Of a DNA stretch of 64,000 nucleotides, positions 9,460 to 55,175 are shown piece by piece. The notes under the pieces were generated by a model. That model searched no databases and was not told where the DNA came from. It saw only the letters and a program-made list of their open reading frames with translations. Numbering within the stretch: position 1 is the stretch's first letter; every line of letters begins with the position of its first letter. Position numbers and translations under genes: made by a program. Source of the stretch: an uncultured virus (IMG/VR IMGVR_UViG_3300030390_001438) (taxonomy: Duplodnaviria; Heunggongvirae; Uroviricota; Caudoviricetes; Crassvirales); the IMG/VR virus record IMGVR_UViG_3300030390_001438; one strand, 5' to 3'.

Positions 9460-9912
9460 ATGAGCGTTTCAGTTCGCAGTACTTCACGTAAACAACCTAC
9501 GCATGATTATCTTAAATACTGGCGAGTAATTAAATACTGGGCAAAGAGAAAATATAATATTAGTACAGAAGATTTAGAAATGATGTTGTTTCTATACAGT
9601 GAACATCTGTTTAATAAAACAAAGTTTGAAGAATACCAAAAACTAATGAGTTGGAATAAGAATAAATTTTACACTTTAATAAAACAAGGTTACATACACC
9701 AATGGCGTAAGAAAAATGGGAAAGAAGCTGCTATGTATGAATTAACTTACAAAGCAAAACGTTTAGTAAATAACGTATATGGGAAGTTAAATGGTGAAGA
9801 GTTTCCTGAAAACTATGTAAACAATCCTGTATTCAAACATGATGTTAAGTTTAGAGATAAAGTCTTTAGACAATATATGCTTAAAATAAATAAAGAAATA
9901 AGAGAAAATTAA
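9460..9912 (+). CDS. Putative winged-helix DNA-binding protein
   Basis: Helical N-half then LIKQGYI...MYELTYKAK wing pattern (MarR-like). Confidence 0.55.
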   Translation: MSVSVRSTSRKQPTHDYLKYWRVIKYWAKRKYNISTEDLEMMLFLYSEHLFNKTKFEEYQKLMSWNKNKFYTLIKQGYIHQWRKKNGKEAAMYELTYKAKRLVNNVYGKLNGEEFPENYVNNPVFKHDVKFRDKVFRQYMLKINKEIREN

Positions 9913-10166
9913 ATAACTACTACTACGTCTTTTTCACTAATAACAGTATACACCTGATCATTAATTAACATTGAGTGTCCTGCAGCTTTATCATAGTATA
10001 TATTATCATTTTCTTTAATAGTATCTACTAAAGTTCCTGGTTTAACTACGTTAGCTTTTTGATATCTCATAGAAGATACATCTTCTGCAGATAATAATAT
10101 ACCTGATTCTGTTTTAACTTCTTCTTCTGTTTTTGTAATTACAATAAATTTACCTATTGGCTGCAT
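9909..10166 (-). CDS. groES: Co-chaperonin GroES
   Basis: MQPIGKFIVI, KTESGILL mobile loop, ISEKDVVVV; adjacent to groEL. Confidence 0.9.
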   Translation of the reverse strand: MQPIGKFIVITKTEEEVKTESGILLSAEDVSSMRYQKANVVKPGTLVDTIKENDNIYYDKAAGHSMLINDQVYTVISEKDVVVVI

Positions 10167-10167
10167 A

Positions 10168-11781
10168 TTATATTTGATTTATTCTTTTGTGAGTTACAAT
10201 TGCATTAGTTGATAGAATTGTAGTAGCAACACTACTTGCATTTAATAATGCATTCTTTGTAACTTTAAGTGGATCAATAATACCCATAGTTAACATGTTA
10301 CCAAACTTCTCATTCTTAGCATCAAAACCATAGTTCTTAGTATTCTTGTTGTTTATCTTCTCTATGATGTCGTTCGGGTTTATTCCTGCGTTGTTTAGGA
10401 TTTGAATCAAAGGTTGACAAAGGGCATCTTTAACCATTTTCAATGCTACTTCATAGTCTGCATCTCCTTGCCACGTTTTACTACCTGTAATACTTTTGCT
10501 GGCATTGTATAAAGCTATACCTCCACCAGCTACAATTCCTTCTTCTAAAGCAGAACGTACAGCACATACCGAGTCATCAACTCGGTCAAATTTTTCTTTC
10601 TGTTCTACATCTGAGTTACCGCCAACGTAAATACAGCCTATAGCTCCAGCTAAACTTGCTATACGCTCGTCAATAAATTTACGAGACACTGGGTCTGTAG
10701 TATTATCTTGCTGAACTCTAAGCTCTTTTACGCGCTTTCTTAGTTCCTCAGTAGGTTCTGAATTTTTTATTAATACGGAAGTTGTCTTGCCAATAATAAT
10801 TTTATTAGCAAAACCTAAATCCTCAGCTCTTAATAGACTAAGGTCATCTCCCGTTTGCTCTGAAAAGTATTTAGCTCCAACAGTTGCTGCTATATCTTGC
10901 ATCAGTTCGTTCTTCTTATAACCGAACGAAGGCGGTGCAATATTACATAGCTTCAAATTGTTTCTAACTACGTTGGCTGCAAAAGTGTTTATCACGTTTT
11001 GACCGCAGTCTGCTATTATTAATAACTTGTCATTATTTTGTATGATCTTTTTTAATACCGATTCGATTTGTAAAATATTACTTATCTCTTGATCACATAC
11101 TAAAACCTTTACATCTTCTAATATGCACTCATCTTTCTTTTGATTATTTATAAATAGATTAGAAGTATAACCTCTATCTACTTTTATACCGTTAGTAACC
11201 TCTGCGTAGGTCTTATGGTTTTGTGATTTCTCTACAGTCACTATTCCATCACGACCAACTTTGTTGTAGGCTTCCGCAATTAATTCCCCAATTATCGAAT
11301 CATTGTTAGCAGATATCTTAGCTACGTCTAATAAACTATTGTCTGTAATTTTTTTAGAATTTTTTTCTAACTTATCTACAACTTGTTCTATTAAAGCATT
11401 AGTGTGTCTAACAACCATTGATGTGTTATGACTATCATCAATGTACTCATTCCCTGCTTTTACAAAAGCTTCTGCCAAAACAATAGCTGTAGTCGTTCCA
11501 TCACCAGCTGAATTAGCTGTACGCTCGGCTGCATCTTTCATTATCTGAATCGCAAGATTCTCTACTGGATCATCTAAAAAGATAGATGCTGCAACTGTAA
11601 CGCCATCCTTAGTCACCGTCATCCCTCGCATATGTTCGGGAGACTCTACTACAACTGTCTTACCTCGTGGGCCTAATGTACTCTTAACTGCTTTTGAAAT
11701 TTGAGAGATTCCGCTTATTAATTTATCTCTACCAGATTTATCGAAATGTAAATCTTTTGGAATGTAGCCCTGTTGTGACAT
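10168..11781 (-). CDS. groEL: Chaperonin GroEL
   Basis: TLGPRG, VTKDGVTVA, GDGTTTA, GIVAGGG, IIDPLKV; start moved to MSQQ because a promoter lies inside the longer ORF. Confidence 0.95.
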   Translation of the reverse strand: MSQQGYIPKDLHFDKSGRDKLISGISQISKAVKSTLGPRGKTVVVESPEHMRGMTVTKDGVTVAASIFLDDPVENLAIQIMKDAAERTANSAGDGTTTAIVLAEAFVKAGNEYIDDSHNTSMVVRHTNALIEQVVDKLEKNSKKITDNSLLDVAKISANNDSIIGELIAEAYNKVGRDGIVTVEKSQNHKTYAEVTNGIKVDRGYTSNLFINNQKKDECILEDVKVLVCDQEISNILQIESVLKKIIQNNDKLLIIADCGQNVINTFAANVVRNNLKLCNIAPPSFGYKKNELMQDIAATVGAKYFSEQTGDDLSLLRAEDLGFANKIIIGKTTSVLIKNSEPTEELRKRVKELRVQQDNTTDPVSRKFIDERIASLAGAIGCIYVGGNSDVEQKEKFDRVDDSVCAVRSALEEGIVAGGGIALYNASKSITGSKTWQGDADYEVALKMVKDALCQPLIQILNNAGINPNDIIEKINNKNTKNYGFDAKNEKFGNMLTMGIIDPLKVTKNALLNASSVATTILSTNAIVTHKRINQI

Positions 11782-11809
11782 GTGATTTAAAATTAAATTA
11801 GATTCCTTA

Positions 11810-11817
11810 CAAATATA
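11810..11817 (-). promoter_or_regulatory. -7 promoter element for groEL-groES
   Basis: TATATTTG on - strand. Confidence 0.6.
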
Positions 11818-11861
11818 CAAAATTTATTTGATGCAACCGCACATGCTGTTGCTAAACAACA

Positions 11862-12051
11862 ATGACGCAATGACAGAATGAAATGCTTTATTTATACTAT
11901 AGAAGTATTTACTTTATATATATTTTTTATATACTAAAAAATTGATTTAAAACTGTCATTTCAGTCATTTTTAATATAACTTACTTATTATTAGTTACTT
12001 ATACTTTTAATAACTGTCATTAAACTGTCATTAAAATGACTATAATAGTCA
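11862..12051. repeat. ATGAC/GTCAT iteron-like element flanking an AT-rich core (copy 1)
   Basis: ATGAC x2, AT-rich spacer, CTGTCATTTCAGTCATTT, AACTGTCATTA x2, TGACTA-taa-TAGTCA. Confidence 0.7.
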
Positions 12052-12113
12052 ATAATAGTAATATATTAGTATATAAATATAAAATATCTTATCAAATCAA
12101 AATATATATGTAT

Positions 12114-12147
12114 AAAAAAAAGAGGTCTCTTTACGAAACCTCTCTTT
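12114..12147 (-). terminator. Rho-independent terminator
   Basis: AGAGGT/ACCTCT stem followed by T8 on - strand, downstream of 12182-12391. Confidence 0.7.
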
Positions 12148-12181
12148 AAACTTAATCAAAACAGAACAATGGGAATCAAGT

Positions 12182-12391
12182 TTAAAAATCTAATTGTCTA
12201 TAATTTTTTTTGTTCTCAGCCATCTCTATAGCTTCTGCTATTTGGTTTACCTTACGATCATTCTTTACAGCTCTCTTCATTGATGCGGCTCTTGTAATAC
12301 CCATCTGTCCATCAGGTGCTAAATTAATTAACCTACCGTTCTTAACTGTATAACCTTCTTGTCTCGGTGTCATTCCTTTAAAGTGACTCAT
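12182..12391 (-). CDS. Hypothetical protein
   Basis: 69 aa with its own TATCTTTG promoter (12419-12426) and terminator. Confidence 0.7.
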   Translation of the reverse strand: MSHFKGMTPRQEGYTVKNGRLINLAPDGQMGITRAASMKRAVKNDRKVNQIAEAIEMAENKKNYRQLDF

Positions 12392-12474
12392 AACTTTTCT
12401 TTTTAATAGTTGATTTTACAAAGATAATAAAAAATTATTAGATATCAGGAAGTGGAGGATAATACTATACTATA

Positions 12475-12742
12475 CACGCACCACCCCCCAACCGAAAACG
12501 AAAATAAAAAAAAAGATTTTGATAAAACAAATCGATCCGCTCCAAACATTTTAGCTTTTTATCTGGGGGTCTGACGTAGCACCAACCCACCGCACCGCAC
12601 ACGCTGCCGCACCGCTTGGCGGCTGCCGCTTTGCGTAGCTGCTCGGCTTTGTTTGGGTCTCCGCTACCGCTCCGCCTCTCCGCATTACTAAAATAAATTA
12701 ATACACGTGAACCCCTTCCCGCGTTTATCACTGGGCGGAGTC
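12475..12742. repeat. GC-rich non-coding CCGC array at the transcription divergence point
   Basis: 13 CCGC/GCGG tetramers between 12537 and 12738. Confidence 0.7.
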
Positions 12743-12859
12743 TTTAATATCTAAACATTTTTTATTTAGAATAAGTATAAATTAAACTTATAACTTGCTC
12801 AAGCTCAGTGAGTTACAATATGTTTAAGTGATGTATATAAATATTTATTAAAATAATGC

Positions 12860-12889
12860 TTGCATAAGTCAATATATAAACTATCTTTG
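12860..12889 (+). promoter_or_regulatory. Early promoter (TTG...TATCTTTG)
   Basis: TTGC at 12860, TATCTTTG at 12882; same spacing as 16740/16762. Confidence 0.7.
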
Positions 12890-12923
12890 AACAAACAATA
12901 AACATTAATTAAACTTTATTATT

Positions 12924-13154
12924 ATGAGTAGATTAAAATTTAACATTAGAAAGGAAGTATTAAAAACTTTAAACGTTATTAAAATTGACACGCAAGAAAT
13001 TAAAAATTCTATTTCTTTTGGTGGTCAAAGCGAAGAAGCACAATTAAAAGATTTTAACGCTGAACGCTTACAAGCTAATGATGTTTATTTATTAGTTGAC
13101 ACTTTAAATGAAGAAGTAGAAAAATTAAAAATGCTTTTAAACTTATTAAAATAA
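12924..13154 (+). CDS. Early hypothetical protein
   Basis: First ORF after early promoter. Confidence 0.7.
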   Translation: MSRLKFNIRKEVLKTLNVIKIDTQEIKNSISFGGQSEEAQLKDFNAERLQANDVYLLVDTLNEEVEKLKMLLNLLK

Positions 13155-13163
13155 TAATAATCA

Positions 13164-13181
13164 GGGAGCGGAAACGCTCCC
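13164..13181 (+). other. GC-rich hairpin with GAAA tetraloop
   Basis: GGGAGCG-GAAA-CGCTCCC, intergenic, no U-tract. Confidence 0.6.
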
Positions 13182-13195
13182 ATAATTTAAATAAT

Positions 13196-13480
13196 ATGCT
13201 TATACACAAAATAGATAATTACAGAAAATTTAATATTTCTTATATCTCTCCGACCAATTACAGAGGCGCAAGAGTTAAGATCTCAGAGCCAAAAAGATAC
13301 AATAACGACAAAACGCAAAACGTTTATTTATCATATTGTTATAAAACAGGAGATATCGCCCAGCAAGGGCTGGACTACTTAATTGAAAAAGGGTTTAAGC
13401 CTGTTTCAAGATGCTCAGAATATAAATTTTATACTATCCTTTGTGATAATTGGGCAGATGAATTTATTAATATAAAATAA
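13196..13480 (+). CDS. Early hypothetical protein
   Basis: 94 aa ORF in operon. Confidence 0.7.
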   Translation: MLIHKIDNYRKFNISYISPTNYRGARVKISEPKRYNNDKTQNVYLSYCYKTGDIAQQGLDYLIEKGFKPVSRCSEYKFYTILCDNWADEFINIK

Positions 13481-13683
13481 TGGGAAAATCAAAAGATCAA
13501 TTTCTACACTTAAGGGAGAGCAGAAAAGCTCAAAGGCGGTATGACGTCCAAGACGTAATAAATTCAGAAATAACACTTCAACCATTGGATTGTCGTAAGT
13601 GTGGCAGTCAAGAAGTTACGTTTCATCAATACGTAGGCGATGCGTACTGCTCCGATTGTGGAGTCTGGCAATTAGATAATTAA
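13480..13683 (+). CDS. Zn-ribbon protein
   Basis: CRKC...CSDC. Confidence 0.65.
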   Translation: MGKSKDQFLHLRESRKAQRRYDVQDVINSEITLQPLDCRKCGSQEVTFHQYVGDAYCSDCGVWQLDN

Positions 13684-13809
13684 TTATTATTAACGTAGCA
13701 TAAGGCAAGTATTTAAACGATGGTACTATTTGCATATGTAAGGTGGCGATACTTTATCCCTTACAGCGTTAAATAATAATAACTAAATATAAATTAAAAA
13801 CTTAATCAA

Positions 13810-14025
13810 ATGAGAACATTTCAAAAAGTATTATTAGTATTCTGTTGGTTGTTTGTTCATTCAGCAATTATCAAACTAATGATTCACATTATTAGAACAG
13901 AAATACAATCACCCACAAATATAATAGCGGTGATCCCCTTACTAATTTTTATAGCGGTACTCATGTATTTCAGCGGTGGATTAGTTTACAATATAGTTAT
14001 TTCAAAAAATCGTTTAAGCGAATAG
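13810..14025 (+). CDS. Small membrane protein (2 TM)
   Basis: Two hydrophobic segments. Confidence 0.6.
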   Translation: MRTFQKVLLVFCWLFVHSAIIKLMIHIIRTEIQSPTNIIAVIPLLIFIAVLMYFSGGLVYNIVISKNRLSE

Positions 14026-14026
14026 T

Positions 14027-14290
14027 ATGGCAAAGGATATAAAACAAAAGGAAGAAATGTTAATTCTTATAGTGGATAAGAATAAAGATTTAGCATTAAT
14101 TACAGCTCTTATTTTAAATGAGGATATTTTAGGTGGGACAATCTTTCAAACATTCGACAGAGCGTATGCGATTGCTACAAATTTCCAATATATCTATCCT
14201 CACGATTTTGATTGGGAAGGTGAAGATATAGACTTTGATGAAGCAGTAATACTATTCACTAAAAAAGTATTAGAAGATGAAATACAATAA
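14027..14290 (+). CDS. Acidic hypothetical protein
   Basis: ORF packing. Confidence 0.65.
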   Translation: MAKDIKQKEEMLILIVDKNKDLALITALILNEDILGGTIFQTFDRAYAIATNFQYIYPHDFDWEGEDIDFDEAVILFTKKVLEDEIQ

Positions 14291-16801: not shown

Positions 16802-17116
16802 ATGAAAAAAGACATATTTGATCAGTACGCAGATGCGATAGCAAAACAACTTCATATAACACTTGACCAAATTTTTTCTGGTGATAGGCGAAGAGATATT
16901 GTTGATGCAAGACAAATGCTTTATTTCATCTGCATGGAAAGGCCTATTAGAATCAGTTTTATTCAAAGATTTATGGAGGAAAATGATTGCCCTGTAAAGC
17001 ACAGTACTATTATTCATGGATACAAAAGAGCTAAAAAATTAATTGACAACGATCCAGACTATAAAAATATTATAGACCAAATTCAAAAAGAGAATGCACA
17101 AGTATCATCATATTGA
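16802..17116 (+). CDS. DnaA C-terminal (domain IV)-like HTH protein
   Basis: R.RDIVDARQM.YF and KHSTIIHGYKR resemble DnaA_C. Confidence 0.75.
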   Translation: MKKDIFDQYADAIAKQLHITLDQIFSGDRRRDIVDARQMLYFICMERPIRISFIQRFMEENDCPVKHSTIIHGYKRAKKLIDNDPDYKNIIDQIQKENAQVSSY

Positions 17117-19442: not shown

Positions 19443-21842
19443 ATGGAGATAACTATATTTAAAGATATTAAAGAAACCTCTCAACCTTTTTATAGAGATG
19501 TTGATATGATCCTTGACAGGATTAGAGATGGAGCTTCTAAAGACATTATCAAAAGAATACGCTCAGAAAAAGATAAAGAGAAAATAAATAATTTAAAACA
19601 ACAACTACCAGCTGTATGTTTTAGTGGTAAATTTACTAAACGTAACGATAAATCCTTAAGCCATCATAGTGGATTAATTTGTTTAGATTTTGATGGTTAT
19701 CCAAATAAAAGAGAATTACTGCAGGAAAAAGAAAAACTTGCAAAGAATAAATATGTTTATTCAGTATTTATATCTCCAAGCGGTAACGGATTAAAAGCCG
19801 TAATTAAAATTCCACCAATTCCAGAAAACCATAAAAACTATTTCCTTGGATTAGAAAAACATTTTTCTTCAGAATATTTTGATATTACATGTAAGAATGT
19901 TTCACGTGTATGTTATGAAAGTTATGATCCATTAATTTATGTAAATGAAAACGCAAGTGTCTGGGATAAATTAGAAGACAAAGAATATAATGAAGTGGTT
20001 AAGCATGTAGATATGCAAACCATACCTGTCACAGATGAAAACAAAATTGTAGAAATTTTAGTTAAGTGGTGGCAAAAAAAATATCCTATGATGGAAGGAG
20101 TAAGAAACAATAACATTTACGTGTTGGCTTCTGCTTTCAATGACTTTGGAGTAAATCAAACCTTAGCTGAATATATAATGTCAAGTTTTGAAACTGCTTC
20201 ATTTAAAAAAGAAGAAATCAAAAGGACAATAACCTCTGCTTATGCTAATAAGCAAAACTTTGGTACTAAGTATTATGAAGACGAAGAAAAAGTCAACATG
20301 ATTAAAGTAAAGTTGAAGCGAGGTGTATCAAAAAAAGAAATTAAAACTCAGCTAAATGAAGTTGACCCTATCATTGTTGAGAATGTAGTAAACAGATTTG
20401 AAGACGAACAATCTAATCATAAGTTTTGGACAAAGAATGAAAAGGGAGTAATTAAAATAGTCCATATTTTATTCAAGCATTTTTTAGAGGAGAATGGTTT
20501 TTATAAGTTTAATCCAGAAGGTAGTAAGAATTATGTGTTTGTAAGAGTAACCAATAATTTGATTGACCATACTGCAGAAAAAGAAATAAAAGATTTTATA
20601 TTAAATTATTTATTAGAGGTTGATGACTATACTGTATATAATTATTTTGCAGAACACACCAGATACTTTAGAGAAGAGTTTTTAACTTTATTGAATTCTA
20701 TTGAAGTTTATTTCATTGAAGACAGTAAGGACACTTCATACTTATATTATCGTAATGGAGCTGTAAAAATTAAAGAGAACTCTGTAACTATGATTGACTA
20801 TCTTGACTTAGGTGGTTATGTGTGGAAAGATCACGTAATAGACAGAGATTTTGCGTTTTGTGAAAGTATACATTGTGATTATCAAAATTTTATAACTAAC
20901 ATATGCGGTGGAAATGAAGAGAGAACGTTGTCTATGAGAAGCACCATAGGATATATGTTACATGGTTGGAAAAACTTAGCATATTGTCCTGCTATAATAT
21001 TAAATGATGAAGTTATATCTGACAATCCTGAAGGCGGAAGTGGTAAAGGATTATGGATCAATGGACTAAGTCAAATGAAAAAAGTCGTTATTATAGATGG
21101 TAAGTCTTTTAATTTTGAAAAATCATTTGCATATCAACTTGTTTCTGCTGACACACAAATACTAACTTTTGATGATGTTCGCAAACATTTTGACTTTGAA
21201 AGATTATTTTCTGTTGTAACAGAAGGATTGACTCTTGAAAAGAAAAACAAAGACGCCATTAAAATACCTTTCAGCAAGTCCCCTAAAATTGCCATAACTA
21301 CTAACTATGCCATCAAAGGTAAGGGGACTTCGTTTGAAAGAAGAAAATGGGAATTAGAATTAGCGCATCATTATAACAAAGATTACACTCCTTTAGAAGA
21401 GTTTGGTAAAATGATGTTTGGGGATTGGAATGATGAAGAGTGGTGTCAGTTTGATAACTATATGATTCAATGTCTTCAGCTTTATTTAGAAAAAGGATTA
21501 ATAAAAAGCTCATTTGTAAATCTTAAGATACGTAAATTATCTGCAGAAACTTGCCATGAGTTTATTGAATGGTGTGGAGTCTTAGGAGATACCACACATG
21601 ATAAACTTAAGGTAGGAGGTAAAGTGAATAAAGCAGATTTATATATAGATTTTATTGAAGACAATCCTGATTTTGCTCCTAAGTCAAAACTAACTGTTAG
21701 CAGAACTAAATTTATGAAATGGGTAACTGCTTTTAGTCAGTTTCAATATGAATGTAAACCAGAAGAGGGAAGGTCAGAGTCTGCACGTTGGGTAAGATTC
21801 AGATATAAGCATGAATTAGAAAAACAAGGAGATTTATTTTGA
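19443..21842 (+). CDS. Primase-helicase (BT4734/VirE-N-like AEP + PriCT + SF3 helicase)
   Basis: KQQLPAVCFSG, CLDFD, FISPSGNGLK, G.RNN, GGSGKG Walker A, FDD Walker B. Confidence 0.85.
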   Translation: MEITIFKDIKETSQPFYRDVDMILDRIRDGASKDIIKRIRSEKDKEKINNLKQQLPAVCFSGKFTKRNDKSLSHHSGLICLDFDGYPNKRELLQEKEKLAKNKYVYSVFISPSGNGLKAVIKIPPIPENHKNYFLGLEKHFSSEYFDITCKNVSRVCYESYDPLIYVNENASVWDKLEDKEYNEVVKHVDMQTIPVTDENKIVEILVKWWQKKYPMMEGVRNNNIYVLASAFNDFGVNQTLAEYIMSSFETASFKKEEIKRTITSAYANKQNFGTKYYEDEEKVNMIKVKLKRGVSKKEIKTQLNEVDPIIVENVVNRFEDEQSNHKFWTKNEKGVIKIVHILFKHFLEENGFYKFNPEGSKNYVFVRVTNNLIDHTAEKEIKDFILNYLLEVDDYTVYNYFAEHTRYFREEFLTLLNSIEVYFIEDSKDTSYLYYRNGAVKIKENSVTMIDYLDLGGYVWKDHVIDRDFAFCESIHCDYQNFITNICGGNEERTLSMRSTIGYMLHGWKNLAYCPAIILNDEVISDNPEGGSGKGLWINGLSQMKKVVIIDGKSFNFEKSFAYQLVSADTQILTFDDVRKHFDFERLFSVVTEGLTLEKKNKDAIKIPFSKSPKIAITTNYAIKGKGTSFERRKWELELAHHYNKDYTPLEEFGKMMFGDWNDEEWCQFDNYMIQCLQLYLEKGLIKSSFVNLKIRKLSAETCHEFIEWCGVLGDTTHDKLKVGGKVNKADLYIDFIEDNPDFAPKSKLTVSRTKFMKWVTAFSQFQYECKPEEGRSESARWVRFRYKHELEKQGDLF

Positions 21843-26637: not shown

Positions 26638-29600
26638 TTAATTTAAACCTTTAGATAAGGGTTTGGATAACCTTCTTCTTTTTCTTTTAGTTGAATTTTT
26701 TTGTATAGGTTGTTTTTTTTGTAAAACTTTTCTTCTTCTTCCACCTGTTTTATCACCTCCAATAACTTTACGTCCTTCCATATAATCATCATAAGCATCT
26801 TGTTGTTTTTTTGTTAAGGGACGTTTACCAAACATATCTTTAAGAATAATTCTTCTTATATCTTTATAAAAAGGTAGTAAACCTAAATTACCTAACGCTT
26901 CAACAGCTAATCTTTCTTCTAATTCTTTTTCGTATTTAGCTATCGTTTCAGGCTTAGCAGTATCACTACTTAATCTCGATCCTACTACACCTGCTCTCAG
27001 CAATGTTTTAACAAGAGGCCCGTAAGGCCCAGCAAATATTTTTGCTCCTACTTTTAAAAGATCACCGCTCATTAAATCATCTTGATTTATTTGACTAAAC
27101 ACCATACTGTGTACAAACGGGTCATATTCACCCTTTCTAAAGTCATCCATAAGAGGCTCGTTTATACCATATTCAAGCATATAGTTTAAAGGTATTTTAG
27201 CAAAGTTACCAAGTGTACCTCCTGTAATAAGACTAAGAGATGATCCTACAAGTTGTCTTACAATCATATCTTCAAGGTCATCGTCTTCTCTTTTATCATC
27301 TTTTACATCAAACAATTCATCATCCATTAGACTTGTAAGCATTGAATACATAACCATATAAGAGGACATTCTAAATGTAACTCCTGCTAATAAACCTAAA
27401 GCTTCAGATTTACTTAAATCTCCTTTTTCATGTAAAGCATGAATTGCATGTCTTGCAGTACCATATTCAAATAAAGTAAATCTTTGCATATAAGAATTAG
27501 ACATTTTATATAATTCCATTAAGCCTGAATCAGTTACTTTTGGAGTGTTTTTAAGGATACCATCAAAGGGATTAGAAGAAGTAGCCATAACCACAACGCT
27601 ACCATCAGCTTTTTGTGTCGCTGTTTCTCTTGCTTCTTTAAAATCTACTCCTAAATATTCAGATGTTCCATCAGCAATCTTTTTAAAATCTTTAGCTGTT
27701 AATTTAATACCTGTAGTTTCAGCAAAAGAATCTGCAAAAGCTCCAAACCACATAGGTCTTGAAAGAACTTGATCTGGATATGACAAAACTTTATTGCCTA
27801 CTTGATTTACTGCAGCGTAAGTCTGTTTAACACCACTAAATCTCATAATAGTACCCATAACATTCGACATTTGACTAACTGCTTGCCCAGAAGATCTGCT
27901 TGGCTGTACAAAATCTGACATATCAGAGTACTTAGAAGTTAAAGCATCGGAATCTACTAACTTACTTGTAACTCCTGAATTTAAAGCTGTCAAAGCATCA
28001 AACATTGTTTCTGTGTTATAAGGGTTAGATGTAAACGTTCCAAATGATTTTATAGCCCTTGTAGCTTTAGCTGGGTTAGACATCATCATACCAAAGTTAC
28101 CTATTAATTCAGCAGCAGCTCTTGGAAGTGAGGCTAATGCTGACTGATAACCTATTCTCTTTACCTCTTGAAGAATTTTACCTCCAATGGTTGCATCTGA
28201 ATAAGATTGCATAAACACGTTTTCAACTACTTCATTTATAGATCGTGTCAAAGCGTTAGCAGCCATAACTGAAGCCCGAGTTGCATCAGGATTATTTTCT
28301 AAATCAGTTTTTATTTTATTTACTAAACCACCTACTTGCTGTAAGTCTTGTGTCATATAGTAATCCATGTTAATTTGTTGAACACCACGAATAGCAGAAT
28401 ACGAAGGATCAAAACTTATAGCTTTTGCGCCATCTGTTCTTTCAATTATAGTTTTAGACTTTGTAGTACCATCAACTGTTTTAACATATTCTTTTGACTT
28501 ATTTGCTACTTCTGTTTTAGCGTCTGTGTCAGTATTTATAACAGAGTGATGATTGTAATTATTAATTAAATCAACTTGATTACCATGCATTGTTGAAACA
28601 AACACAGCTTTTTGAGCTAATCCATTATTAACTTCATCATATAAAGCTAAAGCTTTCTTTTCTGCTGGAGTTAAAGATTTTTCTAACTTCTCTAAACTTA
28701 ATTGATCTCCATCTAAAAATTGTTCTTTTAATTCTGTAAGTAGTTTTCCATCTTTTTCTGAAAGTATACCTTTGTTTTTTATTGCTTTCAAGGTAGCATC
28801 TATAAAATCTACAGCAGAAGGAGTTTTTTTATTTGGTTTATTATTTTTAAAGTTAGATAAAAACTCTCTTTGTAACTGTAACATTCTAATTTTATACTTA
28901 GATTTTACAATTGCATTTTGAGATCTACCCATACGAGTTTTCTTTCTCACTTTATTAACTCCATCAAACTCTAATATTTTATCGGCAGCTTCTACTTTAG
29001 CTACTTCTTTTTTAGTTTCAGACTTGTAAGTTTCAAAAGCTTTACCAAGTCTACCAAATGTATTATTGTAAATAGTTTTACTATTAAAGTTTCCAAATAT
29101 ATCATCAACATTAAATAAAGGCCCAGACCTTACTCTTTCTAATATAAAAGATTTGTCAGTTCTCATTGACTTAATTTTTTGATAAGCACTTTTAACGTTA
29201 CGATATATGCCTTCTGTCTTGACTTTTGCAATTATTGGCTCTACTTTAATTTTTCTGTTATTAATATCTACTTTGTTAACCAGCTTCATTGCTGCTGCAG
29301 GAACATAACCATTTTGAATATTTTGTTTTACTTTCTTCAAAGTTTCGATAGCAGAATAATCCATAGTACCATCTTTCTTTTCCCTTCCTAAAGCTTCAAT
29401 TTCTTTGTCATTAAGTTTAGAAAGAGTCCTTGCTATTTCTCTTGCTCTTGGATCGCTTATTTCTGAAAGTTGTTCGTTAGATATTTTAACCGAGTTAACA
29501 CCAGCCACTCCTTCTTTGACATTGTAGTCATCTGGCGTTGGTTCTTTATCAATAGATAAGTTTTCATCTACATCAACCTCAGCTTCTACAGCGTTAATGA

Positions 29601-32600
29601 TATCTAAGGCTTGTTGCATTGTCTCAGACTTTTGTTTTAAATCCAAAACTGCACGTGTTGATCCAAACTCTTCCAATAATTGAAGATAAGAATCCAGTTG
29701 TGCATCTGGTATTATTGATGGATTAAAACCAAGTACTTCGTTTAAAGCTACTTTTAAATCATTTGAAACAGGCCCTATTTTGCTTTTAATGTTTTTCTTA
29801 GCCTTAGTTTTTAATTTTTTAGCTCTTGCAATTTTAGCCACAAAGTCAGCGTCAGTCATAACTTTATCTACAAAAGCCAAATAACTGTCTACTGATTCTT
29901 TAACAAAAGGTTTTACATTTGCTAATCTTTCTGTTAATGTAGAAGTTTGAGTAGGAGAAAGTTTACCGCCTTTTTTCAAAGACTTTATTTCAGCAGCAAT
30001 ATTTTTCAAGAAATTTTGATAAGATTTTACTGCTTTCTTTGCAGCTTTAGCTTGCATTATAATTTGATCTTTAAGTGCTGTCCTTTCATTTACAACTACT
30101 CTTTTTTGAGGTACAGTTTTATTTTGACCTTCGTTTATAGTGCCTAACATTCTATTATTCTGCTCAGCAAGTTTAAAACCTTTATTTATTGACGCTCTTG
30201 ATGGTGCTTGAATACCAAGGTCTTCACTTACTTCACGAACTAAAGCATCATATTCTACTTGATTTAGTTGTTCGGCTAATTTAGTACCTCCTAAATACTC
30301 AGTCACTTGCTTAACTATAAAAGCAGGGTTAATAGATTTAGGTCTACGTCCAAGGATTTTTTTCTTAATATCTTGAGCTATATTTTTAACACGCTGAGGG
30401 TCAGCTGTTACTCGTTGTTCAGGTTGTAAGAACTCGTCAACTGAAACATTTTCTTCAGCCGCAACTTCTTTTATAGTATTCATTACATTATTAAATGATT
30501 CACTACCTTCCTGTTTTTCTTCTATTAATTTACTTCTAACATCTTTTAGTTTTACAGGATCTTTTGATTCAATTGCATCTTTTACTTCCGTTTCGGTCTG
30601 CGACTGCGGGTTGGTGCTGCTTTCGACTTCAGTCGATTCGGTAGAGACGTTGGTAGTGGTGTCTCCTTCTCCCACTGTTTTGCTATCTTGGGTAGATTCT
30701 TGTGCATCCACCTGCGTTGCGCTTGACTCTTGAATGGCATCTTTTTTAGTTTTAAGTTTTTGTTTTCTTCTTGCTACAGCTTTAGGATTTGCTATATTTT
30801 CAAATCCTTCTATTATTTCTGTTTTAACAATATCACTACCTTCTTGAGCGACAATATTTTCAATAAATTTTTCATTAGTTATATCGTTATTTTTTCCAAC
30901 TCTTTCAGTATTATATACCTGCCCGTCTTTGTCTTTTAATTGTATTATTCTACTACCATCTTTCGCGGTTGTAACGGTAACAATATTTTTATCTCCATTA
31001 TCATCAACTGTTTCGTAAGTTTCTTTTTTTACAGGATCAGTATTTTGAGTAGCAAGCTCGCTTGCTTTTAGGTCAGCGGCTGCATCTTTTTTAGATTGTT
31101 CAAATAATTCTTTTTGTTTGGCTTCTATTTGTTCAACTGAAGCATCAGTAACACCTTCGTTTTCTAAAGCTTCAATTGCAAAATCTCTGGTAATAGAAAC
31201 TGTGTTAGTTGTAGTACTACCTTTTCCATCTGCAACTTCTACCGACCCAGCTATTACACCCTCATACCTCTGTAAAATTTGATCAATTTGAGCATCTATA
31301 TCTGCTTTTCTTTTTTTATTTACTTTCATTTTAGGGTCTTGCATATTAGCAGACTCTTGTTCTAAAGCAATTAATTTAGCTCGATCCTCGCCTTGTATGT
31401 AATTAGGAATATCTAAATCAAATTGTGAAGCTTGTTTTCTTAATGTAATTTTATTAGAAAGTTCTGGGTCATTTTTAATTTCAAACTGAGCAGTTCTAAT
31501 TTCTTCATCAGTCATCGTGTCAACCATAGCTTCTATATCAGCTTTACTTTGATATGTAACATCTCCACCTTTACTTATAGTTCCATACTTTGCTGGTTTA
31601 AATACATTACGAGCAACATCTGTAAGTGAAGTTCCTGTCACAGCTGTAGGTACACTTAATACAGAACTTGCTTGTCCTGTTATACCTTCAAAACCTATTT
31701 CAGCCACATCAAATTCTTGACCCCCTGTTCCAAGATTAACAAAATCTAAATTAGTAGCTGCTCTTGCAGCGGCTTCTCCACCTGACCCACCTAAAGCTTC
31801 TATACCAGCAGCTTTTAAACCTGCTCTTGTTGCCATTTTTGTAGATACTTGTTTTCCTGCTGCTTTTGCTGCTTTAACTGATGCTCCACCTAATTTTCCT
31901 GCAACCCCACGTGTTAAGCCATCAATTGTTCCAATAACTAAACCTCTTGCTGCAGACTTATTTCTAATACCTTGAAGTGCTTCAGGATCTTCTAACACTG
32001 CTCGTATGCCATCATCGTCAAACTCTAATCCTTTTTTCTCAACAGCTTCTTTTAAAAACTCTGTAAACGATAAACCTGTTTCAAGCGTAGCTCCTGCCCC
32101 CATAAGTGTTCCTGTTATAGCTCCACCTGCCGCTGTAAAAGCTGCTAAAGGCCCTCCAATAGATCCTGCAGCTGCACCTACTCCTGCTCCTACTCCTGCT
32201 CCAGTTGCTGCTCCTGCTGCGACAGCAGGGTTTACCATAGAAGCAATTGATGAAATCAAAAGTTGATTAACTACAGTAGGATTAAATGCTACACCTTTTA
32301 TAAAACCAAGTATACCACCACCACTATCTTCATAAATTTTATTGAAGGAACGCATTTCATCAGTCATACCAACGTTATCCATGCTTTCAACAACTCTCAT
32401 GTATTCTTTTAAATCTTCTTCTGAAATTGATGCGCCACGTGCATATAAGTTTAATGCATCGTCTATTGTTGCGCCCTGGCCTACACCTTGCTTTCCAGCT
32501 CTCCACATGTCACCAAAGAAATCTGTAACTGTGTTTTTACCCACCATTTCTTCAAGCCAAGTATTCTTTTCACCTACTTGAGTGTTAGCTCCGTAACGAG

Positions 32601-32964
32601 TTCCTACAGGATTTTCAGGTATAAAAACAGGTTCTTCTGTTAAATTTTGTACATTAAGTCCGTCACTTAATGATCCTGCCAACGGAGAAGATAATCCCGA
32701 TGAAGATTGATCTTCTGGAATTGTTTGCTCTTGCATAGTCGTATCCAATCCCATATCTTGGGTAGGAGAAACTTGCGGAGAATCTTTTTTTTTTAATGGC
32801 TCAATATATTGATTAAACTCTTCTTCGTCTTCAAATGTTCCTGGCGTAAATAAATCAAATAATTCATCAGTCCCATCTTCTTCAATAAAAGTTTGAAATT
32901 CTTCAATATCTACAAATGTCCCTTCGGGCATTAATCCAAATAATTCTTGTATTAATTCGTCCAT
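26638..32964 (-). CDS. Large internal virion (ejection) protein
   Basis: 2108 aa helical; A/G-rich hydrophobic tract; last gene of small-medium-large trio. Confidence 0.6.
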   Translation of the reverse strand: MDELIQELFGLMPEGTFVDIEEFQTFIEEDGTDELFDLFTPGTFEDEEEFNQYIEPLKKKDSPQVSPTQDMGLDTTMQEQTIPEDQSSSGLSSPLAGSLSDGLNVQNLTEEPVFIPENPVGTRYGANTQVGEKNTWLEEMVGKNTVTDFFGDMWRAGKQGVGQGATIDDALNLYARGASISEEDLKEYMRVVESMDNVGMTDEMRSFNKIYEDSGGGILGFIKGVAFNPTVVNQLLISSIASMVNPAVAAGAATGAGVGAGVGAAAGSIGGPLAAFTAAGGAITGTLMGAGATLETGLSFTEFLKEAVEKKGLEFDDDGIRAVLEDPEALQGIRNKSAARGLVIGTIDGLTRGVAGKLGGASVKAAKAAGKQVSTKMATRAGLKAAGIEALGGSGGEAAARAATNLDFVNLGTGGQEFDVAEIGFEGITGQASSVLSVPTAVTGTSLTDVARNVFKPAKYGTISKGGDVTYQSKADIEAMVDTMTDEEIRTAQFEIKNDPELSNKITLRKQASQFDLDIPNYIQGEDRAKLIALEQESANMQDPKMKVNKKRKADIDAQIDQILQRYEGVIAGSVEVADGKGSTTTNTVSITRDFAIEALENEGVTDASVEQIEAKQKELFEQSKKDAAADLKASELATQNTDPVKKETYETVDDNGDKNIVTVTTAKDGSRIIQLKDKDGQVYNTERVGKNNDITNEKFIENIVAQEGSDIVKTEIIEGFENIANPKAVARRKQKLKTKKDAIQESSATQVDAQESTQDSKTVGEGDTTTNVSTESTEVESSTNPQSQTETEVKDAIESKDPVKLKDVRSKLIEEKQEGSESFNNVMNTIKEVAAEENVSVDEFLQPEQRVTADPQRVKNIAQDIKKKILGRRPKSINPAFIVKQVTEYLGGTKLAEQLNQVEYDALVREVSEDLGIQAPSRASINKGFKLAEQNNRMLGTINEGQNKTVPQKRVVVNERTALKDQIIMQAKAAKKAVKSYQNFLKNIAAEIKSLKKGGKLSPTQTSTLTERLANVKPFVKESVDSYLAFVDKVMTDADFVAKIARAKKLKTKAKKNIKSKIGPVSNDLKVALNEVLGFNPSIIPDAQLDSYLQLLEEFGSTRAVLDLKQKSETMQQALDIINAVEAEVDVDENLSIDKEPTPDDYNVKEGVAGVNSVKISNEQLSEISDPRAREIARTLSKLNDKEIEALGREKKDGTMDYSAIETLKKVKQNIQNGYVPAAAMKLVNKVDINNRKIKVEPIIAKVKTEGIYRNVKSAYQKIKSMRTDKSFILERVRSGPLFNVDDIFGNFNSKTIYNNTFGRLGKAFETYKSETKKEVAKVEAADKILEFDGVNKVRKKTRMGRSQNAIVKSKYKIRMLQLQREFLSNFKNNKPNKKTPSAVDFIDATLKAIKNKGILSEKDGKLLTELKEQFLDGDQLSLEKLEKSLTPAEKKALALYDEVNNGLAQKAVFVSTMHGNQVDLINNYNHHSVINTDTDAKTEVANKSKEYVKTVDGTTKSKTIIERTDGAKAISFDPSYSAIRGVQQINMDYYMTQDLQQVGGLVNKIKTDLENNPDATRASVMAANALTRSINEVVENVFMQSYSDATIGGKILQEVKRIGYQSALASLPRAAAELIGNFGMMMSNPAKATRAIKSFGTFTSNPYNTETMFDALTALNSGVTSKLVDSDALTSKYSDMSDFVQPSRSSGQAVSQMSNVMGTIMRFSGVKQTYAAVNQVGNKVLSYPDQVLSRPMWFGAFADSFAETTGIKLTAKDFKKIADGTSEYLGVDFKEARETATQKADGSVVVMATSSNPFDGILKNTPKVTDSGLMELYKMSNSYMQRFTLFEYGTARHAIHALHEKGDLSKSEALGLLAGVTFRMSSYMVMYSMLTSLMDDELFDVKDDKREDDDLEDMIVRQLVGSSLSLITGGTLGNFAKIPLNYMLEYGINEPLMDDFRKGEYDPFVHSMVFSQINQDDLMSGDLLKVGAKIFAGPYGPLVKTLLRAGVVGSRLSSDTAKPETIAKYEKELEERLAVEALGNLGLLPFYKDIRRIILKDMFGKRPLTKKQQDAYDDYMEGRKVIGGDKTGGRRRKVLQKKQPIQKNSTKRKRRRLSKPLSKGLN

Positions 32965-38202: not shown

Positions 38203-41200
38203 TTAACAATTAATTATTTGAGTTACTAAACCACCTGTACCTACTTCCATATACTGAGTGCTTGAAATTTTATAGTAACCTAAAGGTAATAAATTTACTA
38301 TTCCTAAATTACTATCTTCACAATTTGAACTCGTATAAACCGAACTTCCCACTATTGGCACTGCATTACTTCCGTTATTGTGATAATAAATGCTTGCTCT
38401 AACTAAATTACAAGCATCTTGAGGTTGCTCTGTTACAGTACTTGCAATAAATGCAGTACAACTCCATGTACACAAACAACATGCATCATTAGCTGAATTT
38501 GCATCATAACATAATTGTTGTGCTGCAATTTCTCTTACATCATATATAACATACAAATATTGATTACCTGTAGGTAAACTTAAATTTGATACAGTTGCTA
38601 AATTAATATCTGGAGATGGACTTGTCACTTCACTATTAGCTATTGTAGTTGCTGCGGCTAATAAAGACGTTACTCCTGCAGGTGTGTTTGGATATAAAGT
38701 ATTAGAAGATAAGTATTTAAAATTATCTTCAGGGTAATTCCAATTAAATGTATCAAAGTTAACCTTGTTAACTCTAATAGTGAAATCTACTCCATCGTAA
38801 GGAAAAGTTCCTTGTGATCTTAAACCTGTTTGACTATTATAAAAACTAAATATATTGTTATTAGATCCTAACGTTGCCATGTCACTATCAATAGGACTAT
38901 TTGATGTAGTGTCTTGCCAATTGTATTCTACATGTATAGTTTGTCCGCTGTTAGTACTTGAATTTATTAAACACTTAAATACTGTTAAAGAAATTCCGTT
39001 TACACATAAAGGTGTAATAGTGAAAGTTGATTTAGTATTTGGAGTAATAGTTATTGTTGCTGTTGTAGGTGAAGCTGAGGATTTTGTCCAAGGAAAGTTT
39101 CCAGATCCTGTAACGCCTCCTGAATTAAAATTATTACCATTCCAGCTAATGTTTATAGTTACGTTACCTGTTACATTATAAGCTACGCTTGTACCTCCAA
39201 TTAGAGATCCAAAATCATAACTATAAGAAACTGCTTCAGTTTGATCAGTAAAATTTAATTCGACACCACAAGCTAAAATTGGTTGAGGTACTGGTACTGA
39301 ACTTAAATTAGTACCTAATACATACTCATCCATATAAGGATCGTATCCCCCTATTTTTTGTGTGTTAAGTTGAAAATTCCATTGATCTCTAAACCAAGAT
39401 CTCATACCAAAATCAGAAATAACTTTTAATCTGTCATTAACTGAATTTCCAAGAAGCTCTATTACTGCTCCTCTTTTGGTGTCTGTAAAATAAAAATAAG
39501 CTCCATAGTTTGCAAAACTTTCAGGATTGTAACTAATACCATATTCTTCTACACGAGCAATTTGAGTTCCTAAAACTTGAGGTACAGATACAATAGCACC
39601 TCCTCCAGTAGAGTCACTAATAATGTTTTTAGAAGCAAGTACATAGCTTATTCTATCTTCTTGCAGGGTTAAAATATCTGTTTCTCTTGCAAACAATAAT
39701 TGTATTGGCCCAAAAGAAGTTTCTAAAGTTTTAAAATTAGCTAATCCTAAATTAAATTCATTTAAATTATTTATCCCTGAACTACTACTATATACTCCAC
39801 TGTACGTTAAATCAGCAAATCTATCTGTTTCTTTAAAATCTTGTTGAGATGCTGCTAATCCTCTTTGACCCATCACTACAGATCTTCCTGCTATTCTATC
39901 TAAAAATTTAAAACTCTCTACACCATTACCAAAGGTATAACAATCCATAAAATCTAAAGTAACTATAGCTGGTTGAGTTAAAGTTTGATTTTGATCTCCT
40001 GCATCCGTATCATTATCTGATTGATGTAACATATTTCCTGTACCTCCATCTCTAACTAAAGGTAATGCTCTCGATGCATCAAAGTAAATTTCCTCATTTG
40101 CATCAGCTGGTTCTGTTTCAAAAACTAATACTGAATTAGCTCTTTGTACAATTATATCAGCTCTAACAACCATACTTTTACCAGCTATAAAATCAGGTAC
40201 TCCAATTCCTCCACATCTAACTCCTAACCATAAAGGACTGGTTACATCTCCTGGAGTTGCTTGTATAAATTGAAAATTCATACTAAACTTTCCATCACAG
40301 TCCGTATTATCACCTCGTTGATAAGTTCCGCTTGAGCCTGTTATACTTGGATCAATACCAGAGCCTGAAGGTGTAGCGTATGATGAAAAATAAACACCAA
40401 GACAATCCACGCCTACACAGGAATCTGCTTCAAGATCAACATTACTTGCTGTCCAAAAATCTCTAAAATCATTAAAAGTTTCAGAAGCAACAAATGTTTT
40501 TTCTAATCTCCAACTTCTTTCGGGTGCGCCAAATTTATTATCTGGTCTTTTAAATTCAAATTTAACTTCTATTATTGAACCACCTGGAATATTATAATTT
40601 GCAGTAGTATTAGCAGTTGAGTCATACGTGAATAACGGATAAGATAAAGCCCATACATTGTTACAAGTTACCCCACTTCTATCACTTCTTTTTCTTTCTC
40701 CATAATCTATTATAGCATCATTACTAATTTCAATACTAAAATTAGAAGCTTTAAGCTGCATGTAAAGTCCTGCTAATTGCTCAGAGTCCTCTCCAAGCTC
40801 TTGTTCTCCATTTAAAAAATTAGAACTTTGAGCTTCAACAGCTAATACAGTTGTTTCAACTAAAGATGTTAATGCTCCTCCAGTATCTCTTTTTACAATA
40901 ATTCTATCTCCTGTTTGTACTTTATTAGTATTATCTCCCTCTAATTTAAAATGAGTTACATTATCAAAAGGATTGGTGTAAAAGAAATTTGTATATATTG
41001 TTTCATATCCTGTTTTACTTGGCTTTACTACAAATTTATATTTAGTTGCCCAAACAGGAGCATAGTTGTTTACTGTTACTTGAATTCTGTTTTTATTAAC
41101 ACTTGACGCAGGAGGAATATAAATAGTATTGTACTCAGCAACTAATACTGTAGAGGCTCGAGCATATTCATCCATATACACCAGACCTGTTTCAAAATCT

Positions 41201-49354: not shown

Positions 49355-49669
49355 TTAGCTTCTTTTTTTACTAATTTTTTTATCTATTTTTTCTACGGCT
49401 TTACCAACTGCATATTCTTTAAGCATCCATTTACCTGCTTTGTATAAACCCTTTACACCAGATCCTATGTTTGCTAAATTTCCAGCAGAACCTAATCTTT
49501 TTGCTTTTAAACCTTTAGGTATATTTTTTATCAGACCTTTTTTTTTCGCAGCTATTTGCTTAGGTGTTAATTTCTTTTTTAGTTTTTTTCTTTGTACTAC
49601 TTTTTTTCGTGTAGGTTGACTATCAACAACAGTTTTTTTTCTACGTTCTGATTTTTTTAATTTACTCAT
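49355..49669 (-). CDS. Lys-rich protein in head module
   Basis: 104 aa; coupled to portal stop codon. Confidence 0.65.
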   Translation of the reverse strand: MSKLKKSERRKKTVVDSQPTRKKVVQRKKLKKKLTPKQIAAKKKGLIKNIPKGLKAKRLGSAGNLANIGSGVKGLYKAGKWMLKEYAVGKAVEKIDKKISKKRS

Positions 49670-54606: not shown

Positions 54607-55175
54607 TACTTAAATTTATAAAACATTACAAATACTTTACGACCTTCTTCCCAAGATTTATTAGGATATTTACTGTGAAAATAATTTGAAGGATAAGAAA
54701 TTAATCTATTTTCTTCATAACCAACTACCGTACTTAATCTCCATTTATCTAAAATTTCTGAATCTACTTTAAGCATTTTATCATACTCATCATCAGACAT
54801 ATTTTTAGGCATTTCTTTTCCATAGATATCGTGTTCCCAAAAAGCAGTTCCATGTAAATCTTCTAACTCTCTTGGAGAGAAATATAATACTATAGCCCTA
54901 TCAGGTTTCTGTCCTTTAATATTTAAATCAGAGTGTATACGCCAAGTTACATCTAATTTATCCGTAGAAACTCTAAAAAAACTTAGTATGTTTTCTAATT
55001 CTCTTTCTTCTTTTTGTTGTAATAGATCTATAATGTAATGATCAAAATCTTCATTAGATTCTAAAACATAAAAATCCTTACCACCAGATATTTTCTTTTG
55101 GAAAGGATTGTCTAAATATTCTTTAATTATTTTTAAAAAATCTTTATCTATAACATCATCTAATATATAAATCAT
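54606..55175 (-). CDS. 2OG-Fe(II) oxygenase-like protein
   Basis: IHSD...GTAFW...NRL..Y...YFHS...GR. Confidence 0.75.
   Translation of the reverse strand: MIYILDDVIDKDFLKIIKEYLDNPFQKKISGGKDFYVLESNEDFDHYIIDLLQQKEERELENILSFFRVSTDKLDVTWRIHSDLNIKGQKPDRAIVLYFSPRELEDLHGTAFWEHDIYGKEMPKNMSDDEYDKMLKVDSEILDKWRLSTVVGYEENRLISYPSNYFHSKYPNKSWEEGRKVFVMFYKFK

Follow-up and report, generated by a model that had tools for sequence, protein, structure and literature searches.

A strand-asymmetric GC-rich repeat array and its adjoining conserved module in GroEL-carrying podoviruses of marine Flavobacteriia: a candidate genome-junction or packaging region

Repeat-bearing terminal and packaging regions are already known from several phages, such as T7 with its terminal region, lambda with cosB, and SPP1 and P1 with their pac sites. 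In T7, arrays of short repeats lie in and next to the 160-base-pair (bp) terminal repeat, and the early promoters are found about 500 nucleotides (nt) from the end of the DNA. In lambda cosB, SPP1 pacL/pacR and P1 pac, short repeats stand beside a bent or A-tract element and a cleavage region, and the specificity resides in the repeats, which differ between relatives; to our knowledge, a strong asymmetry of G and C between the strands is not a feature of these sites. A further system, Tenacibaculum phage Gundel_1 (MT732474.1), has in its record a 322-bp terminal repeat placed in a divergent intergenic gap and followed by a strand-asymmetric GT-rich repeat stretch; its short terminal repeats are an unverified PhageTerm prediction (PMC8776804). 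Here, we describe a locus in an uncultured virus (IMG/VR record IMGVR_UViG_3300030390_001438), of which a stretch of 64,000 nt, referred to as the window, was analysed. The source of the window is a GroEL-carrying podovirus of marine Flavobacteriia of about 60–68 kb. The element in question is an array of CCGC words on the + strand (12537..12722), adjoined by a conserved non-coding module in the gap between the leftward late genes and the rightward early genes. The array was confirmed, the module proved to be conserved and to occur once in the window, and in one run the depth over the locus rises two-fold with sharp limits. With a confidence that falls a little short of even, we favour the reading that the array region is a terminal-repeat, concatemer-junction or packaging region, in which the array provides lineage-specific recognition repeats.

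Eleven CCGC sites stand on the + strand (12537, 12590, 12595, 12607, 12612, 12626, 12661, 12667, 12672, 12680 and 12719), of which five read CCGCT (12537, 12612, 12626, 12661 and 12667) and four read CCGCA, whereas GCGG, the same word on the − strand, occurs at two sites (12619 and 12735) in the stretch 12475-12742; the totals for the whole 64-kb window are 72 CCGC and 45 GCGG. A preliminary description of this DNA had reported the same 11 sites on the + strand and two on the − strand at the same coordinates, and this count was reproduced and lies beyond what was reached by shuffling. When the region 12530-12730 (201 nt, with 69 C and 41 G) was shuffled, the mean number of CCGC per shuffle was 1.59 for mononucleotide shuffles (n = 5000) and 2.98 for dinucleotide-preserving shuffles (n = 5000), and 11 CCGC were reached by none of the 5000 shuffles in either set; in any other 200-nt span of the window the maximum of CCGC or GCGG is three. 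The GC content at 12550-12649 is 0.54–0.70 versus about 0.31 across the window. The dense core of the array (12590-12683) begins with three imperfect tandem units of 16–19 nt, each starting with CCGC and ending with GCTG (12590-12606, 17 nt; 12607-12625, 19 nt; 12626-12641, 16 nt), after which the CCGCTACCGCTCCGCCTCTCCGC cluster follows at 12661-12683. In four sequences of about 88% identity, 2 of 36 columns vary in the CCGC cores versus 14 of 65 in the spacers (Fisher p = 0.046), and because the cores vary less than the spacers in these close relatives, sequence comparison indicates that the array is under selection. Across the family it is the position, the GC-richness, the repetitiveness and, mostly, the strand asymmetry that are kept, but not the CCGC word.

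The family was surveyed by a GroEL scan of IMG/VR, in which 160 of 162 candidate stretches were confirmed and 80 loci were kept, so that a related GroEL is encoded by at least 160 IMG/VR stretches; the window stretch itself is present in 20 marine metagenome runs from 10 studies. The large terminase (TerL) of the window is 70% identical to that of MW202828.1, 44% to those of the Flavobacterium elemo phages, 41% to that of Maribacter phage Panino, 37% to those of the Cellulophaga podoviruses and 32% to that of Gundel_1. A GC-rich segment (100 nt with at least 50% GC) lies 400–1300 nt upstream of GroEL in 46 of the 55 loci that have at least 1300 nt of upstream sequence, compared with 12 of 62 for a control stretch, in genomes with a GC content of 30–38%. 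The array is always GC-rich and repetitive, and its repeat unit changes between lineages: GCGG occurs at least four times in the arrays of 7 of 43 relatives, and elsewhere in the family the units are GGGG(T), AGGTA (16 times in locus L009), GAGAG, GTGTG, CACC or GTTTAAAC-containing, with sizes from 5 to about 28 nt. The G-rich strand is the GroEL-sense strand in 35 of 43 arrays and the polarity is reversed, with the GroEL-sense strand C-rich, in the other eight. Polarised arrays at the same locus in relatives had been proposed as a check in the preliminary description; GC-rich arrays are indeed present there, mostly with the same strand G-rich, but neither the motif nor, in those eight, the polarity is retained. 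No DNA similarity to 12100-13200 was found among GenBank phages, and a 27-mer from the array island has no exact match in IMG/VR.

The module adjoining the array is non-coding, about 170 nt long and alignable across 39 relatives, and its elements comprise an A-tract motif, C/G and A/T runs, GTATTAYCCTC and ATATCTAAT. Its layout on the GroEL-sense strand is fixed: the variable GC-rich array is followed by motif d (AGAAAAAAGCYAAAAAATCC), a spacer of about 25–30 nt and a C7 run, then by an A8-9 run with TCGTTTTC, by TATA..GTATTAYCCTCAACC, and by ATATCTAAT, a T-run and a −7 box; in the clade of the window a later G6 run takes the place of the C7 run. In the window, motif d consists of two phased A-tracts, CAGATAAAAAGCTAAAATG (family consensus AGAAAAAAGCYAAAAAATCC), at 12547..12566 on the − strand, and directly adjoins the array. 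The G6 run (C6 on the + strand), TTTTCGTTTTC and the T9 run (A9 on the + strand) occupy 12484..12514 (− strand), as seen in the sequence and in the alignment of the 39 relatives, and at this position other lineages have a C7 run upstream of an A8 run. The GTATTATCCTCCAC element at 12452..12465 (− strand), with the family consensus GTATTAYCCTCAAC and preceded by TATAGTATAG, is conserved in the alignment of the relatives; it has one exact match in the window, and the 17 other matches, with two or three mismatches, are at the chance level. The module closes with ATATCTAATAATTTTTTATTATCTTTG at 12419..12445 (− strand), which unites the conserved ATATCTAAT box, the T-run and the leftward −7 box TATCTTTG, is conserved in the 39 aligned relatives and has one match in the window with none expected. 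An inverted copy of the ATATCTAA..TTTTTTATT element is found at 12747..12766 on the + strand, 90% complementary over 20 nt to 12426-12445, and is weaker in the relatives of about 88% identity. On the early-gene side of the array, a semi-conserved, ATAAACGCGGGAAGG-like motif b, GATAAACGCGGGAAGGGG, lies at 12712..12729 (− strand) and was recognized by eye in the window and in loci L001, L003, L005, L017 and L038. A hidden Markov model (HMM) of the module, built from 39 sequences, matches Flavobacterium elemo phage NC_055854.1 (E = 2.4e-9) and MW202828.1 (E = 2.1e-6).

The array lies in a 456-nt gap between divergent promoters, because outward-facing TATCTTTG boxes are found at 12419-12426 on the − strand and at 12882-12889 on the + strand. 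The rightward early promoter (12860..12889, + strand) is composed of TTG at 12860, which we take to be its −33 element, a spacing of 19 nt and the TATCTTTG box. Both boxes match TAnnTTTG, the flavobacterial sigma-A −7 consensus (PMC9723704). The array had been placed previously where late and early transcription diverge, and this placement agrees with the gene order, with a leftward 69-residue (aa) open reading frame (ORF), GroEL and GroES on one side and rightward ORFs from 12924 on the other. Similarity to the relatives of about 88% identity ends at 12919-12943. Other identities of the locus were tried and rejected. For a structured RNA, a search of Rfam 15 at E values of up to 10 gave nine weak matches below the gathering score, none of them in 12475-12742, and on neither strand was folding better than that of shuffled sequences (z-scores of −0.97 and −1.66); ARAGORN found no tRNA; and an 88-aa ORF at 12465-12731 (− strand) matches no family and has its frame broken by one-nucleotide indels in the relatives of about 88% identity.

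The evidence that DNA ends form at this locus comes from depth, from contig ends and from Gundel_1. In run X3, a unitig at 12429..12791 (363 nt, without strand), a candidate short direct terminal repeat or concatemer junction, has a depth of 896.6 versus 443.7 on its right (12762-13997) and about 407 on its left, which corresponds to a factor of 2.0–2.2 with sharp limits. In run X1, the contig 12032-14149 has a depth of 237.5 (flanks 186–213), where about 234 would be expected if 363 nt were doubled on a base of about 200. Exact terminal repeats are described as giving a sudden doubling of reads, with a length of 200–700 bp for the short ones (PMC5000459). We infer that the 363-nt block is a terminal repeat and that the array repeats are bound by the terminase or by another packaging factor. 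A related contig of 65,353 nt (G026:C10), the GroEL of which is 67% identical to that of the window, is binned in a Flavobacteriaceae metagenome-assembled genome (MAG) and both begins and terminates within the module; its two ends fall immediately beyond motif d, on the side of its array that faces the late genes, and overlap by exactly 19 nt in this one contig. It probably derives from a long-read assembly, because the same MAG holds a main contig of 3.885 Mb. The contigs behind loci L072 and L022 end at motif d, and these ends, together with those of G026:C10, all lie within about 45 nt of motif d. Gundel_1, with a TerL identity of 32% over 94% of the query, is the sole TerL relative with an end prediction, and its repeat occupies a divergent gap as outlined above. 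Summed, these signals give moderate support for a genome junction within the module. The suggestion in the preliminary description that a virion end lies just left of the array thereby gains some support from the X3 block starting at 12429, the ends of G026:C10 and the position of the Gundel_1 repeat.

Several observations weigh against a terminal repeat or junction at this position. The depths are those of contigs and unitigs in four runs (X1, X2, X3 and X8) and not of read starts or ends, and the doubling is clear in one of the four (X3); X8 is intermediate, and X2 has no doubling over 12429-12791 (8.44 versus 9.0–9.9 in the flanks). A nearby block of 154 nt at 11908-12061 is also raised, by about 1.8-fold in X1 (374 versus about 205) and about 7.7-fold in X2 (76 versus about 10), and therefore blocks common to co-occurring phages exist here and could mimic a doubling. 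The 19-nt overlap of G026:C10 sits midway in the equivalent of the 363-nt block, and so the end signals disagree, one pointing to a 363-bp repeat and the other to 19-nt cohesive-type ends. Contigs end at dispersed places: in the iteron region, in the 69-aa ORF, in the module or in the array and, on the early side, throughout the early genes; of 51 truncated early-side contigs, 2 stop within the array or module. IMG/VR classes 20 of the 25 near-complete relatives as linear, and the 'direct terminal repeats' of the other five were rejected as physical ends, as they are assembler overlaps (50, 77, 91, 127 and 127 nt) that lie in unrelated places. Neither Gundel_1 nor Panino is matched by the module HMM, and no small terminase subunit was identified in the window, which leaves the repeats with no known binding partner.

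Other results on ends can be set beside these. Contigs in all four runs span the place in the window that is equivalent to the ends of G026:C10, and a degenerate 32-mer from the array island retrieved four metagenome contigs, none of which ends at the limits of the block. A 30-nt loose end behind 12782 in X2 has no match in the window or in 116 loci; the 19-mer of the G026:C10 ends has 15 matches in IMG/VR, all in unrelated coding contexts; and the ends of the Panino record show no terminal repeat. The Gundel_1 repeat starts with simple elements that also occur in the module, but their order is mirrored and no HMM match was obtained, and this likeness was not used. Clustering of contig ends was likewise rejected as a proof of termini and is treated as weak evidence, since the ends are scattered and conserved GroEL words also break contigs. 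Loose ends are present in all four runs at two GroEL segments (10511-10545 and 11477-11508), and the contigs of relatives L051, L080 and L123 start at GroEL residues 136–139; ultra-conserved GroEL words evidently break metagenome assemblies, which calls for caution when contig ends are taken as termini.

In the proposed mechanism, the module would be the place where virion DNA ends form and genome units are joined in concatemers. The most likely structure would be a direct terminal repeat of the short kind, about 363 bp in length (12429-12791), present at both virion ends and filling the gap between the promoters; in linear virion DNA starting from about 12429, the array would then lie 110–290 nt inside the end and the early promoter about 430–460 nt from it. 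The GC-rich repeats would most likely be recognized by a DNA-binding protein that is specific to the phage and belongs to its machinery for packaging or junction processing, and they would co-evolve with that phage protein, while the conserved A-tract motif and the AT-rich stretch may form the bend or the cleavage-proximal part. Recognition by such a phage-specific component would explain why the repeat unit turns over while the A-tract motif and the AT-rich stretch stay conserved, and related co-occurring phages would in this way gain distinct packaging signals. The phage Sak annealing protein and exonuclease could join the terminal repeats into concatemers. Terminase-binding repeats had been listed as an alternative in the preliminary description; this comes close to what we now consider the best, if still tentative, explanation.

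The function first suggested for the locus is that of a Chi-like multi-site attenuator, by which an entering host AddAB-type nuclease would be switched from degradation to recombination. The sequence has features that invite this reading: the Chi of Bacillus subtilis is 5'-AGCGG (PMC3321194); the array resembles a locus in which 10 Chi sites are packed into about 100 bp and which serves experiments to maximise recognition (PMC4027173); and Bacteroidetes, for example Bacteroides fragilis, possess AddAB, the Chi of which was unknown in 2010 (PMC2887965). Our literature search found no later determination of a Chi for Bacteroidetes AddAB. The orientation would be right if the DNA end were at 12429 or about 12520, as 5'-AGCGG/GCGG-3' on the − strand has its 3' end towards that terminus; the same strand is G-rich in most relatives (35 of 43), and the phage-encoded Sak and exonuclease could use such ends. 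However, the unit differs by lineage, with frequent GCGG in only the seven arrays mentioned and reversed polarity in eight; if the block is a terminal repeat, its copy at the opposite end of the genome would face the wrong way for Chi; and the attached conserved phage module is not needed for Chi. Over-representation and skew of GCGG and AGCGG in candidate hosts had been put forward as a check, and this was applied to 400 kb of G026:C1, a chromosome of the Flavobacteriaceae MAG that is binned with a related phage, with the leading strand inferred as the − strand from dnaA at 1.62 Mb and the ORF bias. In this one genome, for which host status is unproven and gene orientation was uncontrolled, AGCGG occurs 185 times on the leading and 118 times on the lagging strand (rank 35 of 892) with an observed-to-expected ratio of 1.11 (rank 148 of 1006), GCGG occurs 402 and 344 times, and GGGGGT, the unit of the related phage in the MAG, 13 and 4 times. 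AGCGG is thus neither notably skewed nor over-represented, the sampled chromosome gives no Chi-like signal for AGCGG or GCGG, and the Chi-like function, against which the turnover of the unit, its reversals and the expected mis-orientation of a second copy also count, is now regarded as very improbable. If it were true, the turnover of the unit would track the still-unknown Chi of different Flavobacteriia hosts and the arrays would be what nature offers in place of the engineered 10xChi locus; from phage genomes one could then read the Chi motifs of hosts and so the hosts themselves, and a recombination hotspot of Bacteroidota would be revealed. As a separate observation, the same 400 kb (G026:C1:100001-500000, loci L131-L150) contains the overlapping 8-mers GGAGCTAC, GGGATGTA, GTAAGTAG, GTAGTGGA and TTGGGATG, each 44–89 times and 94–98% on one strand, which suggests a dispersed or arrayed oriented repeat in this Flavobacteriaceae chromosome.

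The remaining explanations place the array in replication, in regulation or in no dedicated function. As part of a replication origin, the GC-rich direct repeats of 16–19 nt would serve as iterons to which an initiator of the phage binds, for example the primase-helicase or the DnaA-domain protein, and about 12490-12566 would be the unwinding element. Lineage-specific direct repeats beside a conserved AT-rich stretch with phased A-tracts form the classic iteron layout, as in lambda ori and plasmid origins, and the module is single-copy and heads the operon with the replication genes; the GTATTATCCTCCAC element may also bear a loose resemblance to a DnaA box. In the window, three units of 17, 19 and 16 nt do stand beside an AT-rich A-tract stretch, but the units are very different in relatives, where those of 5 to about 28 nt, some of them simple pentamers such as AGGTA, are unlike iterons; more than 4 kb separate the array from the closest replication gene, and an origin predicts neither the sharp two-fold depth block nor contigs that end inside the module and overlap there by 19 nt. 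We consider an origin rather unlikely. A regulatory or architectural element of the divergent promoters, whether through binding of a phage or host regulator or as a GC-rich insulator against supercoiling interference, would fit the location of the array exactly between two sigma-A-type −7 boxes, the repressor-like gene nearby (9460-9912) and the second lineage-specific, operator-like repeat set (CTGTCAT-type) upstream of GroEL. Operators, however, usually lie near or overlap promoters, whereas the array core is 165–290 nt from either −7 box; the spacings of 5–35 nt are irregular, unlike phased regulator sites, and the depth doubling and the contig ends inside the module would have no explanation, all of which makes this reading improbable. 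Finally, the array could be a fast-evolving, slippage-prone GC-rich spacer, with the conservation belonging to the neighbouring module. The wide variation of units and lengths by lineage and the frequent breaks of assemblies in the array region speak for this, but GC-richness is kept at this position in 46 of 55 relatives with genomes of 30–38% GC, conservation among close relatives favours the CCGC cores, and the mutation pressure of an AT-rich genome should erase an unselected GC island; a spacer devoid of function appears the least probable of the explanations considered.

Leftward of the array lie the 69-aa ORF, GroEL, GroES, an amidase, an M15 peptidase and a holin. The 69-aa ORF (12182..12391, − strand) opens the leftward unit and precedes GroEL; its coding sequence is alignable across relatives, and it has no Pfam or PHROG family. 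GroEL is encoded at 10168-11820 and GroES at 9909-10166, both on the − strand. Rightward, the first early ORF (76 aa; 12924..13154, + strand) opens a series of small ORFs that is followed by a protein with only the C-terminal domain of DnaA (16802-17116), the Sak annealing protein, a PD-(D/E)XK exonuclease, a 799-aa primase-helicase (19443-21842) and a helicase. From about 26 kb, the − strand encodes virion proteins, the portal (49669-52104) and the 750-aa large terminase (52101-54353). The 104-aa protein at 16802-17116 consists of the DnaA C-terminal helix-turn-helix domain alone (PF08299, 32.9 bits). A 188-aa protein at 55172-55738, just upstream of the terminase region, gives a GroES-type PHROG match (phrog_13932, E = 6e-22) in addition to GroEL and GroES at 9909-11820. 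Three giant proteins are encoded on the − strand, at 26638-32964 (2108 aa), 38203-42990 (1595 aa) and 57154-62679 (1841 aa). For the one of 2108 aa, the sole match is to a PHROG without assigned function; the one of 1595 aa resembles a virion structural protein, and the one of 1841 aa has tail-fibre ends.

Further repeats and symmetrical elements were observed close to the locus. A second repeat set (ACTGTCATTAAACTGTCATTAAAATGAC...), CTGTCAT-type, lies at 11908-12065 between GroEL and the 69-aa ORF, in the block of raised depth in X1 and X2, and at this place relatives carry units of their own (ATGACGAC, CGACAC, ACCGTCA and TGACGAA). Several near-complete contigs break in this GroEL-upstream repeat region (G003-G005), and in one of them (G004, 57,672 nt, classed as linear; loci L101/L102) the first and last 400 nt are near-identical but inexact, an end duplication in the GroEL-upstream repeat region. 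This repeat set looks like operators or iterons shared by recombination among co-occurring phages. Just beyond the 363-nt block, the palindromic AACTTGCTCAAGCTCAGTGAGTTACAA is found at 12792-12818, about 45–70 nt upstream of the TTG at 12860, and TTGTAAC-type relatives of it are present in L001, L005 and L007; it is a possible operator. Directly after the first early ORF, a hairpin with a perfect GC stem, GGGAGCGGAAACGCTCCC, at 13164-13181 (also recorded as 13160-13181), is terminator-like by scan and could attenuate early transcription.

The new feature is a module found throughout a family of marine flavobacterial podoviruses, with a strongly strand-asymmetric GC-rich repeat arm of fast turnover in a genome of about 31% GC. 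Our literature search found no description of the module, the genome ends or the packaging signals of this family; the elemo phage paper lay outside its results, and supplements were not covered. As a junction module, if this reading is true, the locus would be a landmark for orienting and closing these genomes and would explain the breaks of assemblies here. As the module is shared with the cultured Flavobacterium elemo phages, it would offer a testable system for packaging specificity among co-occurring relatives, in a phage family that is widespread, as the marine runs and the IMG/VR stretches counted above indicate.

In conclusion, the locus can be compared with four kinds of described systems. 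With iteron origins such as lambda ori, plasmid origins and P4 ori/crr, it shares lineage-specific direct repeats beside an AT-rich A-tract stretch and a single-copy occurrence; it differs in that the units of the family are irregular (5 to about 28 nt), the array is not in or next to an initiator gene, and the depth block and contig ends would be left unexplained. With Chi sites and the 10xChi locus it shares the crowding of a short G-rich word, with 10–11 occurrences on the same strand in about 180 bp; five of these match the complement of AGCGG. The motif of the window, however, is not retained by relatives, behaves unlike Chi in the single Flavobacteriaceae chromosome that was sampled, and belongs to an array tied to a conserved phage module. 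From cosB, pacL/pacR and P1 pac it differs in lying 40 kb from the terminase gene, with no small terminase subunit identified, and it resembles them in that the repeats adjoin an A-tract element. As for Gundel_1, its TerL is 32% identical, the module HMM finds no match in it, its repeat is a prediction by PhageTerm (PMC8776804), and its repeat stretch lies outside the annotated terminal repeat, whereas the array of the window would lie inside. In both phages, nevertheless, a block of a few hundred bp (322 bp in Gundel_1 and 363 bp for the candidate block) is located between leftward late genes and rightward early genes, a strand-asymmetric stretch of short repeats is found beside or inside the block, and the early genes follow a few hundred nt further on. 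The overall geometry would also be like that of T7, with the early promoter of the window about 430–460 nt from the proposed leading end.

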